Assembly: GCF_009931435.1 (NCBI RefSeq)
Contig: NZ_CP043414.1
Length of the DNA stretch: 64,000 nucleotides
Strand: one strand, 5' to 3'
Source of the DNA: Escherichia coli
GTDB lineage: Bacteria > Pseudomonadota > Gammaproteobacteria > Enterobacterales > Enterobacteriaceae
Shown one piece after another: positions 45,521 through 49,628 of this stretch. The notes under the pieces were generated by a model. That model did no database searches. It saw nothing but the letters and a program-made list of their open reading frames with translations, and was not told where the DNA came from. Positions within the stretch are counted from its first letter, which is position 1; each line of letters begins with the position of its first letter. The position numbers and the translations under genes were made by a program.

Positions 45521-45897
<377 letters not shown>

Positions 45898-45904
45898 ATT
45901 TTAA

Positions 45905-45940
45905 CGAAAACCCGCCAGCGTAAACTGGCGGGTTTTTGCT
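45905..45940 (+). terminator. rnpB rho-independent terminator
   Basis: aacccgccagcgtaaactggcgggtttttgctttt. Confidence 0.8.
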
Positions 45941-45959
45941 TTTGAGGAGGGTGGTCGGA

Positions 45960-46060
45960 AAGATGAACGTCTTATCTGGCCTACAAAACAACGAAAATTC
46001 AATATATTGCACAGAGGCAATGTAGGCCTGATAAGCGTAGCGCCTCAGGCAATTTTGTGT
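45960..46060. repeat. REP palindromic elements
   Basis: ggcctacaaaac... and gtaggcctgataagcgtagcgcctcaggc units. Confidence 0.75.
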
Positions 46061-46169
46061 TTATCATCAGTCTCGAACCTGCTTCGGCAAGCTTTTACTT
46101 TTGGTGCAGACGGAAAGATGAACGAATATCTAAGCTATTAATAATAGACTTTGCAAGAAATCATTACAT

Positions 46170-47339
46170 TTATATTTCATTTAAAAGATCGTAATCATAC
46201 GTATATTCTTTGCTAATAAAACGACACTCGTTGAAGCTAAATTTATCGTCTGAAAAGGAATTGTCAACAGAATCTCTCTCTTCCTCCAGGCTATTATCTG
46301 AAAGCAAGTCGTTTGAGTTAGTATAATCTAGGTTGTAATCGACAGTATAATTAATTTCTGGATCGGTTTGGTAATCATTTTTTTTGACGCAATCATATTC
46401 TTCAATAATTTTGTCGATATAATCATATGCTTTTTCTAATGAGAAGTTTTTCATCTCTGGTAATTTAACTTTGCTCAAATAATTATTAATTTTTGAGGAG
46501 TTTTTATATATGCTTTTTGTTAATTCTTTTTCTAATTTGTCTGTTATATTTGCTGTTGGTATGGATTTTATAATCGCATATCTCATGATTTTTAATTGAT
46601 CTTCGGTTAAATCTCCAAGCTCATTTAAACAACTTTCGACAAAGTTGATTTTTTCTCTGGAATAATCATCGCTGATACTTGTTAACGCTGGGGTGATTTT
46701 TAATAAAGAATTCCATGAGATAGTACCATTGTGTGTCGAACGCATAAAATTTATATTGTACATATTGGTTTTAGTAAACTTTGTTGCAAACAATGTAAAG
46801 GGATCTAAAGTCGCGTAAGCCATATGTTTATTTGAAAAATCATAACCAGTTAAATCGACGTTATGCAAGTCCAGATAGGATAAATCTATTACGTCGCCTG
46901 CTCCAGAGCTAAAGATTACATTTAATCTTCTGATTTCATTGTAAATTTTATTTAATGAACAATTTGTGTTCATGATGTCTGCTGAAATTTTTATGTTATT
47001 TAACGGTTCACAAATTATAAGCTCGCAGGTATTGTCTGATCGTTGCGTTATTTGGGCATTATAACCTAAAAAGTCTATGCGAAGAGACGAGTCATTATAA
47101 ATTATTACATTTTTTAAGTATGCTAATTCTTGTTGAAAATCACCATCGATAATACATGTCCCACCAGGTTGCAACGCGCTGATTAACGTGAGCATTTGAT
47201 TAGAAGTCTGTTTTAGTTTTACTACACCTGGTGCTAGTGCTTTGAGGTCATTTATTATGGGGGTTTCAGGAATGTCATTCATTTTTATACATACTAAATT
47301 ATTACCTAAGTCATTACCTATTGATGAAACCGGGAACAT
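46170..47339 (-). CDS. yhaC: AT-rich uncharacterised protein with pentapeptide-repeat segment (YhaC-like)
   Basis: 389 aa; DLSYL/DLHNV/DLTGY/DFSNK five-residue periodicity; acidic Asp/Asn/Tyr-rich C-terminus; low GC by eye. Confidence 0.7.
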   Translation of the reverse strand: MFPVSSIGNDLGNNLVCIKMNDIPETPIINDLKALAPGVVKLKQTSNQMLTLISALQPGGTCIIDGDFQQELAYLKNVIIYNDSSLRIDFLGYNAQITQRSDNTCELIICEPLNNIKISADIMNTNCSLNKIYNEIRRLNVIFSSGAGDVIDLSYLDLHNVDLTGYDFSNKHMAYATLDPFTLFATKFTKTNMYNINFMRSTHNGTISWNSLLKITPALTSISDDYSREKINFVESCLNELGDLTEDQLKIMRYAIIKSIPTANITDKLEKELTKSIYKNSSKINNYLSKVKLPEMKNFSLEKAYDYIDKIIEEYDCVKKNDYQTDPEINYTVDYNLDYTNSNDLLSDNSLEEERDSVDNSFSDDKFSFNECRFISKEYTYDYDLLNEI

Positions 47340-47360
47340 TATTTTATCCTTTTTAAATAA

Positions 47361-47900
47361 TCAATGAGAATCATGATTAAAATGATCTGGTGAAAAAAAG
47401 AGAATTTGCCAACAATCTGAAACATTGTCAGTTTTATTAAAATGATTAAATTCCGTTAAGATAACTTCTTTTTGCGTGAACTTTGCGCAAAACTTAAAAA
47501 TTGTCTCCTTGATACACTCCAGATCTTTTCTATTGATGGCTGAACAAGTACATTTTTCGCCAAAAGGTGAAAATGTGCCTACATCTAAAGTTTGTATTAT
47601 ATAATCATCATTTACTCCTGTAGAAATATCAATGATGAATGGACTTCTATTTTCCGGTTGGATTCGGATCATTACAGAAGAAACATCACCTTTATAGACA
47701 TTCAATGCAGTAATCGCAGATAATATTCTCCGCAATTCATTGCTTATGCTGTAAATTTCATTAACGTCATTTGTCGATATAATCTCGGCAAATTTTATTT
47801 TTACCTTCCAATAATCAATGTTTCTATTATAAGTGTTAACAGTCTCGTACATTGGTGGTATCGAAGGGGGTAAAAAATGTGAAACCGAATAACCTTTCAT
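47361..47900 (-). CDS. yhaB: AT-rich uncharacterised protein (YhaB-like), 179 aa
   Basis: ORF 47361..47930; start tentatively set at MKGYSVSHFLPP; 21 nt upstream of yhaC on the same strand. Confidence 0.65.
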   Translation of the reverse strand: MKGYSVSHFLPPSIPPMYETVNTYNRNIDYWKVKIKFAEIISTNDVNEIYSISNELRRILSAITALNVYKGDVSSVMIRIQPENRSPFIIDISTGVNDDYIIQTLDVGTFSPFGEKCTCSAINRKDLECIKETIFKFCAKFTQKEVILTEFNHFNKTDNVSDCWQILFFSPDHFNHDSH

Positions 47901-48138
47901 TGATGCCTGCCTTGTCATCATGACAAACAATAATCAATGCTTATTCTCCTTGCACGGTTCGCTCACAACTATCAAAAAACGCTCAATTACCCGGCATTAC
48001 AGTCAACGAAGCAAAATTCTGTGGTCTACAACGATGTAAAGCACAACGAAAATCCTCCTTGTTCTCTTCTTCTGATCGTATAGCGATGAACATCAATTAT
48101 TCGTTTTGTGATCCTCAACACAAAATGCTATTTAGTAA

Positions 48139-48513
48139 CTATGGTGACAGTAGAAACGAGGGGAAACGATTGCATTCACAAAATGACGTCCTGTAAGAAG
48201 GGTGAAAGTTGATGTTAATCAATTGTTCGAGATGATCAATATCTGTATTCAAAATTTTAAAACATTGATAAAATAAATGTTTGTCCTCCAACAAATAGCG
48301 AGAAAAAATGTGACGTGCCGCATTATTTATCGCTGAAAATGATTTATTTATAATAAAATTTGATAACTTGCTCATAAAATTTAACTCAAAATTTGCCTGG
48401 TAATTATCCGCTAATTGCTTGAAATATGGTCGCAGCTGCTTTTTTTTATTAACCACATAACGAATGATGTTATCGCCATAAAATATGGTTATCCCTGTCA
48501 TTTTTTTTGACAA
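48139..48513 (-). CDS. tdcR: AT-rich small ORF at the tdcR position, divergent from tdcA; true start uncertain (internal Met at MSKLSNFII)
   Basis: 124-codon ORF, location upstream of and divergent from tdcABC. Confidence 0.55.
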   Translation of the reverse strand: MSKKMTGITIFYGDNIIRYVVNKKKQLRPYFKQLADNYQANFELNFMSKLSNFIINKSFSAINNAARHIFSRYLLEDKHLFYQCFKILNTDIDHLEQLININFHPSYRTSFCECNRFPSFLLSP

Positions 48514-48689
48514 AAATCAGGGTTTATGCTGATTTATATACTTTAACTTATTGATATATAAAAATATTTAATTGATACAGTGATGTCCAAAAAAGTATTG
48601 AAAGTTAATTTGTGAGTGGTCGCACATATCCTGTTCATTTCATTTTGATACACTTCATGCCGTCAATGAGGTTATTAACGTAGGTAGTT

Positions 48690-49628
48690 ATGAGCACTAT
48701 TCTTCTTCCGAAAACGCAGCATCTGGTAGTCTTTCAGGAAGTCATTAGAAGTGGCTCTATCGGCTCGGCTGCAAAAGAATTAGGGTTAACTCAACCCGCC
48801 GTCAGTAAAATCATTAACGATATTGAAGACTATTTTGGCGTGGAATTAGTGGTGCGGAAAAATACCGGTGTAACATTAACACCTGCCGGTCAATTGTTAC
48901 TCTCCCGTTCCGAATCCATTACCCGTGAAATGAAAAATATGGTTAATGAGATAAGCGGTATGTCTTCTGAGGCGGTGGTGGAAGTCTCATTTGGTTTTCC
49001 TTCATTGATTGGTTTTACTTTTATGTCCGGGATGATCAACAAGTTCAAAGAGGTGTTTCCGAAAGCGCAGGTTTCTATGTATGAAGCGCAACTGTCTTCG
49101 TTCCTACCGGCAATCCGCGACGGTCGCCTGGATTTTGCGATTGGTACGTTAAGCGCAGAAATGAAGCTTCAGGATTTACATGTTGAGCCGCTGTTCGAGT
49201 CCGAGTTTGTGCTGGTAGCCAGTAAGTCCCGAACATGCACCGGCACCACCACGCTGGAGTCGTTGAAGAACGAACAGTGGGTGTTGCCACAAACCAATAT
49301 GGGGTACTACAGCGAGCTGCTTACCACGTTACAAAGAAATGGCATCAGTATTGAAAACATCGTTAAAACTGACTCAGTCGTGACAATTTATAATCTTGTC
49401 CTCAATGCTGATTTCTTAACTGTAATTCCTTGTGATATGACGTCACCTTTTGGTTCTAATCAATTTATTACTATCCCGGTTGAAGAAACATTACCTGTGG
49501 CACAATATGCCGCGGTATGGTCGAAAAATTATCGTATTAAAAAAGCAGCATCGGTTTTGGTGGAATTAGCCAAAGAGTATTCATCTTATAATGGGTGTAG
49601 ACGAAGGCAATTAATAGAAGTTGGTTAG
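48690..49628 (+). CDS. tdcA: LysR-family transcriptional activator of the tdc operon
   Basis: 312 aa, N-terminal LysR HTH (…GSIGSAAKELGLTQPAVSKII…). Confidence 0.9.
   Translation: MSTILLPKTQHLVVFQEVIRSGSIGSAAKELGLTQPAVSKIINDIEDYFGVELVVRKNTGVTLTPAGQLLLSRSESITREMKNMVNEISGMSSEAVVEVSFGFPSLIGFTFMSGMINKFKEVFPKAQVSMYEAQLSSFLPAIRDGRLDFAIGTLSAEMKLQDLHVEPLFESEFVLVASKSRTCTGTTTLESLKNEQWVLPQTNMGYYSELLTTLQRNGISIENIVKTDSVVTIYNLVLNADFLTVIPCDMTSPFGSNQFITIPVEETLPVAQYAAVWSKNYRIKKAASVLVELAKEYSSYNGCRRRQLIEVG

Follow-up and report, generated by a model that had tools for sequence, protein, structure and literature searches.

Two linked questions are raised by the locus of tdcR, a small regulator-like gene that is divergent from tdcA in Escherichia coli: at which codon its product begins, and whether this DNA is conserved as a protein gene or as control DNA of the tdc operon. 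Both were addressed in a stretch of E. coli DNA of 64,000 nucleotides (contig NZ_CP043414.1; the window), in which the tdcR position is occupied by a 124-codon ORF (48139-48513, minus strand) that opens with TTG at 48513. A preliminary description of the window had proposed that the AT-rich N-terminal part of this frame may be non-coding and that the real product might begin at an internal MSKLSNFII, and had considered the start undeterminable from sequence alone.

The tdcR frame and its annotated forms

The 124-codon open frame and the AT-rich character of the region are both borne out, by the ORF list of the window and by a GC content of 27.5-33% over 48100-48700 vs 42-60% in the flanks. The TTG at 48513 lies 176 bp from the ATG of tdcA at 48690. 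Further in-frame starts are ATG 48501, giving 120 aa, GTG 48456, giving 105 aa, and the internal ATG 48375 (48375-48373), which together with the stop codon TAG (48141-48139) delimits the short form of tdcR (48139-48375, minus strand), with the N-terminus MSKLSNFII and 78 aa here or 72 aa in K-12. The TTG, the upstream ATG and the GTG are held by an in-frame extension of 46 codons (48376-48513, minus strand). On the other side of the interval, tdcA (48690-49628, plus strand) encodes a LysR-type activator, is the first gene of the tdc operon and has the same product as near-identical strains (WP_000104211.1). The gene yhaB (47361-47900, minus strand) shares the strand of tdcR, lies downstream of it and is followed by yhaC (46170-47339), both within the same AT-rich hypervariable island. 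The left edge given for the interval, 47931, corresponds to a yhaB ORF extended to the TTG at 47930 and needs correction, the RefSeq start of yhaB being ATG 47900.

The 759-bp interval was matched in 5392 of 5426 complete E. coli genomes, with at least 99% identity to only 3 of them and 80-90% (about 88%) to 5373. Since the flanking rnpB, tdcA and tdcB are 95-100% identical to K-12, while 45963-48600 (yhaC, yhaB, tdcR) reaches 70-92%, the window comes from an E. coli that carries the hypervariable island in a rare, divergent allele. In E. ruysiae and Escherichia sp. E4930, tdcR is the neighbour of tdcA with no yhaBC beside it, and the tdcA-garK interval of E. albertii and of Salmonella likewise has no yhaBC. 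By this synteny, the tdcR region belongs with the tdc control region, and yhaBC looks like a later insertion.

Current annotation favours the short form. In a 99%-identical strain, RefSeq places tdcR at 48139-48375 of the window (78 aa), and the homologous 72-aa form is annotated in K-12 (NP_417589.4), O157, UPEC, IAI39, O139 and river isolates. The equivalog family NCBIfam NF008507 (72 positions; curated cut-off 100 bits) is matched with 141.5 bits (E = 9e-42), its profile positions 1-72 aligning with residues 47-118 of the 124-aa ORF. Between ATG 48375 and the tdcA ATG at 48690 there are 314 bp, equal to the spacing in K-12 (3267065 to 3267380), and the start motif MSK(L/F)SNFIINK is kept in every lineage with an intact gene, the length being 72 or 78 aa. 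Curated databases thus far already list this locus together with its regulators and the short start. Gene callers nevertheless often emit 114- or 120-aa forms, and a 124-aa "TdcR" is also among the long calls. No mention of tdcR was found in the supplements of a tetracycline start-site profiling paper.

Conservation of the candidate starts

The tdcA-tdcR interval was aligned for the window, K-12, five further RefSeq E. coli, two metagenome contigs, Escherichia sp. MOD1-EC7003, the E. whittamii group (L006, L007, L011), the E. ruysiae group (L008-L010) and two E. albertii; independent lineages in the comparison are few (five to six within Escherichia, plus four outgroups, with E. fergusonii and E. 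marmotae left out), and the alignments are uncertain in spacers of AT-rich DNA. Each of the 17 Escherichia sequences in which tdcR is intact has ATG 48375 and the open frame of 72 or 78 codons, whereas TTG 48513, ATG 48501 and GTG 48456 were confined to E. coli proper and its closest relative (L004, ATG only). In the E. whittamii group ATG 48501 is lost, a 1-nt deletion in an A-run shifts the frame, and no ATG, GTG or TTG occurs among the 31 codons that are open ahead of the core ATG. The sole upstream start remaining in the E. ruysiae group is a TTG at -26 codons. The E. albertii group has lost both the upstream starts and the reading frame of the extension, and its two strains have ATA where the core ATG of tdcR stands.

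Ribosome-binding signals follow a similar division. No Shine-Dalgarno match was found before TTG 48513, ATG 48501 or GTG 48456, and the computed anti-Shine-Dalgarno pairing is +0.3 to +0.6 kcal/mol for these three starts vs -2.2 kcal/mol for ATG 48375; tdcA, tdcB, yhaB and yhaC, taken for comparison, range from -3.9 to -7.6 kcal/mol. The core ATG also falls within the least structured 60 nt (-3.6 vs -8.2 to -12.4 kcal/mol at the upstream candidates), and its own Shine-Dalgarno sequence consists of a 3-nt GAG only, which is lost in non-coli species. Curated annotation and the cross-species comparison support the suggestion that the N-terminal part is non-coding and that the product starts at MSKLSNFII. 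As to the start being undeterminable, the judgement holds for a single sequence but not for a comparative alignment, which largely fixes it. Such an alignment had itself been recommended, and it finds the core ATG conserved across Escherichia and the upstream starts specific to E. coli; conservation and ribosome-binding evidence for the full 124 codons, which would have spoken for the long frame, were sought and gave no Shine-Dalgarno sequence and no conservation of the starts outside E. coli proper.

It is nonetheless conceivable, although in our view unlikely, that E. coli proper makes a long form (120, 124 or 105/99 aa) as the real or an additional product, in which case ATG 48375 would encode Met-43/47 and the other Escherichia would carry a secondarily truncated gene. 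The main support for a long form is that, in E. coli proper without indels, 47 upstream codons are open and all three starts intact in 10/10 sequences; however, neither starts nor frame are conserved in the E. whittamii, E. ruysiae and E. albertii groups, in which the core is, and the upstream starts have no Shine-Dalgarno sequence. By chance alone the 46 codons of the extension would be open in 1.3% of base shuffles (the other two frames have 4-5 stops across the 42 codons counted from ATG 48501), a figure that favours coding; the variable sites within E. coli, with 2 synonymous and 11 non-synonymous changes spread evenly over the codon positions, do not. The N-terminal peptide MTGITIFYGDNII of the extension is identical across alleles, but it is encoded by a 27-nt conserved block that is also kept in genera without the ORF, and residues 1-35 of the long form have an AlphaFold2 pLDDT below 50. 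The common 114/120-aa calls likewise have to be set against the 72 aa on which curated annotation has settled, and the version suffix.4 of NP_417589 would fit a revised protein record. The original report of 1989 reportedly described a product of 99 aa and ~12 kDa seen in minicells, a size that corresponds to the GTG start (48456), and the 114 aa of the first genome annotation fit ATG 48501.

A promoter upstream of the long-form starts has been predicted for tdcR in K-12, TTTAAA-16-TATAAA (PMC3946193), and is one more point in favour of a long product; it maps to window 48562-48535, and a genuine promoter at this place would make the extension a tdcR 5' leader of about 150 nt. Our sigma-70 scan for a tdcR promoter returned 2 sites vs 3.6 expected, so that the promoter is not placeable from sequence. 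A terminator-like match at 48102-48127, considered as the tdcR terminator, was rejected: it is on the wrong strand and coincides with a CRP-like palindrome described below. Points that do not sit easily with the short form are the 3-nt GAG, the ATA of E. albertii, the 1.3% chance openness, the position of the K-12 promoter upstream of the extension and, in the core, the lack of purifying selection at the protein level other than stop avoidance.

The reading that we prefer is that tdcR probably comprises just the last 78 codons of the frame (ATG 48375 to TAG 48139), the 46 upstream codons being untranslated leader or promoter and distal tdcA DNA. The 124-codon frame would then be a composite, made up of a small Escherichia-specific gene, reported to be a positive regulator of the divergent tdcABCDEFG, and of 46 first codons that would act as tdcR leader and promoter and simultaneously as the distal part of a long conserved tdcA control region; in E. 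coli proper the frame would have stayed open through constraint on the DNA and little change, not through protein coding. In practical terms, the 72/78-aa form of tdcR should be kept in annotation, and the comparative evidence settles a recurring gene-caller error.

Conserved DNA upstream of tdcA

The preliminary description had named the ~175 bp upstream of tdcA as the target of CRP/IHF/FNR-dependent control. The CRP and IHF parts of this statement agree with the motifs found. A CRP box (TGTGAGTGGTCGCACA, 48611-48626, plus strand) with one mismatch to the consensus TGTGA-N6-TCACA lies within a stretch of 29 nt that does not vary in Escherichia, and the box retains 15 of its 16 bases in Salmonella, Citrobacter and Klebsiella aerogenes. 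It lies 22 bp upstream of a conserved extended -10 element, TGaTACACT (48646-48654, plus strand), read from sequence and kept as TGnTACACT in four genera. From these elements the tdcA start is predicted near 48661, with the CRP centre near -42, close to class II geometry (-41.5). A 13-nt element (TATCAATAAGTTA, 48544-48556, minus strand) is an exact match to the IHF consensus WATCAANNNNTTR and forms a predicted site about 110 bp upstream of the predicted tdcA start; its TCAA core is kept across genera. IHF was reportedly found to be required for tdc by Wu & Datta in 1992, and the position of the match agrees with this. More generally, the predicted start and the CRP and IHF positions at tdcA agree with those reportedly described in the Datta and Sawers papers.

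The FNR part fared differently, there being no FNR-like site better than chance in the 176 bp. No FNR site (TTGAT-N4-ATCAA with at most one mismatch) was found in 48514-48689, where only 2-mismatch matches occur; in the 64-kb window such matches number 44 vs 37.6 expected. A perfect FNR-type consensus, TTGATGTTAATCAA, is located inside tdcR (48209-48222), about 445 bp from the tdcA start, and is the only zero-mismatch match in the window. The other intact Escherichia alleles aligned have GTCAA there (9/10 bases), and the site is unconserved in E. albertii and outside Escherichia. Effects of Fnr and ArcA on tdc were reported as indirect.

To these near sites a longer stretch of conserved DNA has to be added. 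The DNA upstream of tdcA was compared from Salmonella enterica, Citrobacter freundii, K. aerogenes and Pseudescherichia vulneris, all of which are without tdcR. With blastn, window 48090-48720 was aligned over about 630 nt with Salmonella, Citrobacter and K. aerogenes, the identity being 61-67% and the E-values referring to a tiny database; for P. vulneris the alignment is limited to the ~360 nt next to tdcA (61%). Blocks kept across genera include the CRP box, TGnTACACT, the IHF core, CTGATTTTnnTCAAA(A/G), ATATTTCAAGCAATTA and a second CRP-like palindrome, and further common blocks are GTCACATTTTT and TCACAAAAT (48176-48184). Invariant columns of the cross-genus alignment make up 32% of the tdcR core and 29-35% of the control DNA vs 3-6% of unconstrained spacers, and one spacer, 48557-48599, is hypervariable with 67% identity to K-12. 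The second CRP-like palindrome (TGTGATCCTCAACACA, 48107-48122) has one mismatch to the CRP consensus and lies 17 bp 3' of the tdcR stop; it is 96.8-100% conserved in Escherichia (93.5% in one species), is recognisable in all genera and, on the tdcR strand, would form a 7-8-bp AU-rich hairpin without a U tail.

By these alignments, ~600 bp upstream of tdcA, tdcR included, are homologous across Escherichia, Salmonella, Citrobacter and Klebsiella, and conservation reaches back about 550 bp from the predicted tdcA start. The ~175 bp named earlier cannot be taken as the limit of the control region, as conserved DNA continues for about 600 bp, through the extension and tdcR, to 48107-48122. The control region that we propose would combine a CRP-dependent promoter of class II with an extended -10, an IHF site near -110 and further conserved blocks from about -140 to -250, both the tdcA transcription start and the proteins binding the conserved blocks being predicted here. 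The control region of this anaerobic threonine/serine operon would be about three times longer than the usual 176 bp, and would contain a second CRP-like site and several further conserved blocks. A targeted full-text literature search found no description of this cross-genus conservation of ~600 bp, and the conservation, with the tdcR DNA included, may be new.

The extension is part of this conserved DNA. It is 94.5% identical to K-12, which makes it the best-conserved part of the island, and its variable sites are spread over the three codon positions as 14, 14 and 13 across species and as 4, 5 and 4 within E. coli; dN/dS, at 7-10 substitutions per pair, is too noisy alone. The block that encodes the invariant peptide is the 27-nt element GGGATAACCATATTTTATGGCGATAAC (48469-48495), composed of the direct repeat GGGATAAC / GGCGATAAC with an inner palindrome CCATA-N3-TATGG and situated about 166-192 bp upstream of the predicted tdcA transcription start. 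It is invariant in 11/11 Escherichia sequences despite their differing reading frames, and GGGATAAC-N11-GGCGATAAC is recognisable upstream of tdcA in Salmonella, Citrobacter, K. aerogenes and P. vulneris. TdcA is a candidate binder of this element. Two other conserved blocks lie in the extension: ATATTTCAAGCAATTA (48412-48427), kept across four genera, and CTGATTTTTGTCAAAA (48505-48520), which spans the TTG "start" and is kept across genera as CTGATTTTnnTCAAA(A/G). Because its best-conserved block recurs in genera without a tdcR ORF, the extension is constrained as DNA, independently of any ORF.

Other searches of the region were negative. No Rfam family was found in 47800-48800, and a search for repeats returned nothing beyond short chance-level pairs and shared TTTTGTGA motifs. 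A conserved structured RNA or leader was considered and dropped, the RNAalifold covariation being -2.4 in the tdcR sense (Escherichia) and +1.3 in the tdcA sense (four genera).

Coding status of tdcR and comparison with known systems

If the short form is taken as the gene, the question remains whether its 216-nt core behaves as protein-coding DNA. Among the selection tests it is stop-codon avoidance (P≈0.01-0.05) that argues for coding. None of 78 distinct substitution events in the core makes a stop, with 2.7-4.2 expected (P = 0.009 for random placement, 4.2 expected; P = 0.022 and 0.048 for two conservative versions that keep the variable positions), and the core frame is without a stop in 19/19 Escherichia sequences, with 4-7 stops in the other two frames. 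The core keeps its length in Escherichia without indels, except for one compensated pair in a metagenome contig (L013). Beyond stop avoidance, no protein-level purifying selection on the core was detected by codon periodicity or dN/dS: the variable columns number 20, 20 and 19 by codon position, omega by NG86, a crude method for biased composition, is mostly 0.5-1.0 between lineages, and the 7 synonymous and 36 non-synonymous variable sites within E. coli give an about neutral ratio. Conservation of the core is uneven: runs of 17 and 25 nt show no variation at all.

Searches for features of the protein were also negative. Homologues of TdcR are confined to Escherichia and Shigella, with no Pfam family at gathering score, no PDB-sequence relative (best E = 1.2) and nothing in PHROGs and PADLOC; for YhaB and YhaC, too, Pfam, PHROGs and PADLOC gave nothing usable. 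The AlphaFold2 models of the 78-aa and 120-aa forms had pLDDT values of 37.8 and 42.3, respectively, with no confident fold, and no DNA-binding domain or resembling fold was recognisable in TdcR by Pfam, PDB or AlphaFold2. TdcR has been listed as the sole member of its own transcription-factor family (Ishihama et al., PMC4797297).

These results bear on a second alternative, to which we assign a rather low but not negligible probability: the tdcR ORF would be non-functional or marginal, a recent by-product found only in Escherichia, and the active element would be the ~600-bp tdcA control DNA, so that the trans effect of plasmid-borne "tdcR" would reflect titration of a silencer or regulator such as H-NS. 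Homology of 48100-48690 in Salmonella, Citrobacter and K. aerogenes (61-67% over about 630 nt), where the frame aligned with the core is broken by 2-3 stops and a 1-nt indel, agrees with this proposal. The ATG is lost in two of these three genera, its position reading AAG in Salmonella and AGG in K. aerogenes, and Citrobacter keeps the ATG and stops at codon 13. The core is as conserved as the control DNA, its substitutions are evenly distributed over codon positions with omega near neutral, no domain, relative or fold is recognised, and E. albertii has ATA in place of the ATG. In K-12 the region is, moreover, an H-NS-bound "promoter island" (PMC3946193, PMC3661553). The proposal has more difficulty with the lack of core stops in Escherichia, with the frame that stays open in E. 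albertii through a strongly diverged middle part, and with an ATG kept in five lineages. Published genetics would also have to be explained otherwise, a trans-acting role having reportedly been assigned to tdcR by Schweizer & Datta in 1989 and by Hagewood et al. in 1994.

From the preservation of the ORF and these reported genetics, we infer that TdcR is translated and acts as a protein. That the extension is non-coding is highly probable, because the short-form reading and the DNA-only proposal both imply it. It is possible, though this is a tentative suggestion, that tdcR is a young ORF confined to Escherichia, either born inside an ancient ~600-bp cis-regulatory region of tdcA or left there as its last open remnant. 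Were this so, most of the "TdcR conservation" would be that of DNA blocks (the second CRP-like site, TGTGA/TCACA motifs, the GGGATAAC repeat), the peptide TdcR would be marginal or dispensable, and part of its trans effect could come from the DNA. In the comparisons above, the embedded "activator gene" behaves like regulatory DNA rather than a selected protein. The question of protein or DNA becomes testable for TdcR; understanding beyond this operon would not be changed.

Among known systems, the closest is tdcR of K-12 (b3119, NP_417589.4, 72 aa), which occupies the equivalent place between yhaB and the divergent tdcA. It shares its ATG with the allele of the window, and the first 72 codons of the two are in register. 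The two proteins are about 83-86% identical, and the stop of the window allele comes 6 codons later, giving 78 aa and the C-terminus SFLLSP. Earlier long annotations of tdcR (114 aa, 99 aa) correspond to the same frame, in which they would be 120 aa and 105 aa here; they have been dropped by current RefSeq, PGAP and NCBIfam and are unsupported by the present comparison. The known promoter of the E. coli tdcABCDEFG operon, which depends on CRP, IHF, TdcA and TdcR, is matched as well, the CRP box, the extended -10 and the IHF site standing at the expected places in the window and 48600-48689 being 97.8% identical to K-12.

The K-12 tdcA/tdcR interval has been described as a 477-bp promoter island (PMC3661553, Panyukov & Ozoline 2013) and as an H-NS-marked binding site of the RpoD holoenzyme (PMC3946193, Shimada et al. 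2014). The AT-rich composition of E. coli promoter islands is shared by the region of the window; however, such islands are usually tied to horizontally acquired DNA, whereas the tdcA-proximal ~600 bp here are old and syntenic across genera. Candidates for young de novo genes offer a further parallel, since tdcR, like them, is an ORF of one genus with homologous non-coding DNA in sister genera, has no domain or confident fold and shows a dN/dS near 1. Unlike most de novo gene candidates, tdcR has a published regulatory phenotype.

Variability of the island between rnpB and tdcA

The genes yhaC, yhaB and tdcR form a hypervariable, AT-rich island (window 45963-48600) that is 70-92% identical to K-12 and is flanked by rnpB and tdcA, for which identity to K-12 reaches 95-100%. 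The lowest values within the island, mostly 70-84%, are those of yhaC; for the YhaC protein encoded in the window, the NCBIfam score is 567 bits, below the cut-off of 765. In the interval between rnpB and yhaC (45800-45963), an indel considerably longer than 100 bp separates the window from K-12, the alignment there consisting entirely of gaps. The stretch from tdcR, or what remains of it, to rnpB lacks both yhaB and yhaC in E. ruysiae, Escherichia sp. E4930, E. albertii and Salmonella. A search of the island for matches to defence-system or phage families yielded none.

Length variation and disruption of tdcR

The position of the tdcR stop codon (window 48139-48159) is polymorphic among the aligned sequences. 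In most E. coli, CCA-TAA ends the reading frame at 72 aa, whereas CCC-TCG...TAG results in a 78-aa product in the window, L012, the closest relative of E. coli proper (L004) and L006 from the E. whittamii group. The length differs even between sister species, since L007 from the latter group encodes 72 aa vs 78 aa in L006.

In L013, an ENA metagenome contig with a K-12-like allele, a pair of +1 and -1 indels inside the tdcR core (aligned to window ~48290-48345) causes a local frameshift that is compensated, so that the ORF is still 72 aa long; in the same contig, changes aligned to window ~48400, including a 3-nt deletion, introduce a stop codon that precedes the ATG of the core by 8 codons. 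A similar compensated frameshift was found in P0026, a TdcR protein from a complete genome. Errors made in sequencing homopolymer runs may account for the indels of both sequences. In two E. coli genomes, H9 (NZ_CM168014.1) and L025 (NZ_CP041448.1), an IS1 element is inserted in tdcR, leaving the gene split into two annotated pieces in one of them and only its C-terminal part in the other; thus, loss of tdcR is tolerated by natural strains.

In both E. albertii strains (L018 and L019), no gene is called at the tdcR position and the ATG (aligned to window 48375) is replaced by ATA. The 72-codon frame is nevertheless open, and its middle part (aligned to window ~48205-48262) is exchanged for strongly diverged sequence.

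CRP-like and FNR-type sites in and near tdcR

A second CRP-like palindrome, TGTGATCCTCAACACA (48107-48122), lies 17 bp past the stop codon of tdcR, at a distance of 504 bp from the CRP box of tdcA, and is retained from Escherichia to Klebsiella, including species without a gene downstream on that strand. It may belong to a distal tdc promoter or to the yhaB promoter, or act in DNA looping. Other conserved TGTGA/TCACA motifs are located at 48176-48180 and 48309-48313. The only perfect FNR-type consensus within the 64-kb window, TTGATGTTAATCAA (48209-48222), is found within the tdcR coding sequence. It is perfect in this allele only, the second half-site being GTCAA in all other aligned intact Escherichia alleles, and conservation of the site extends neither to E. 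albertii nor beyond Escherichia.

Mutations of the tdcA/tdcR intergenic region in gut evolution

In a mouse-gut evolution study (PMC7518454), the region between tdcA and tdcR was reported to have acquired IS5 insertions repeatedly, as well as a single A-to-C substitution. Both were placed on the window by coordinate conversion between genome versions. If the study coordinates are those of NC_000913.2, the IS5 site would fall at the distal edge of the tdcA CRP box (window ~48610-48615) and the A-to-C mutation within a few bases of the extended -10 TG (window 48646).
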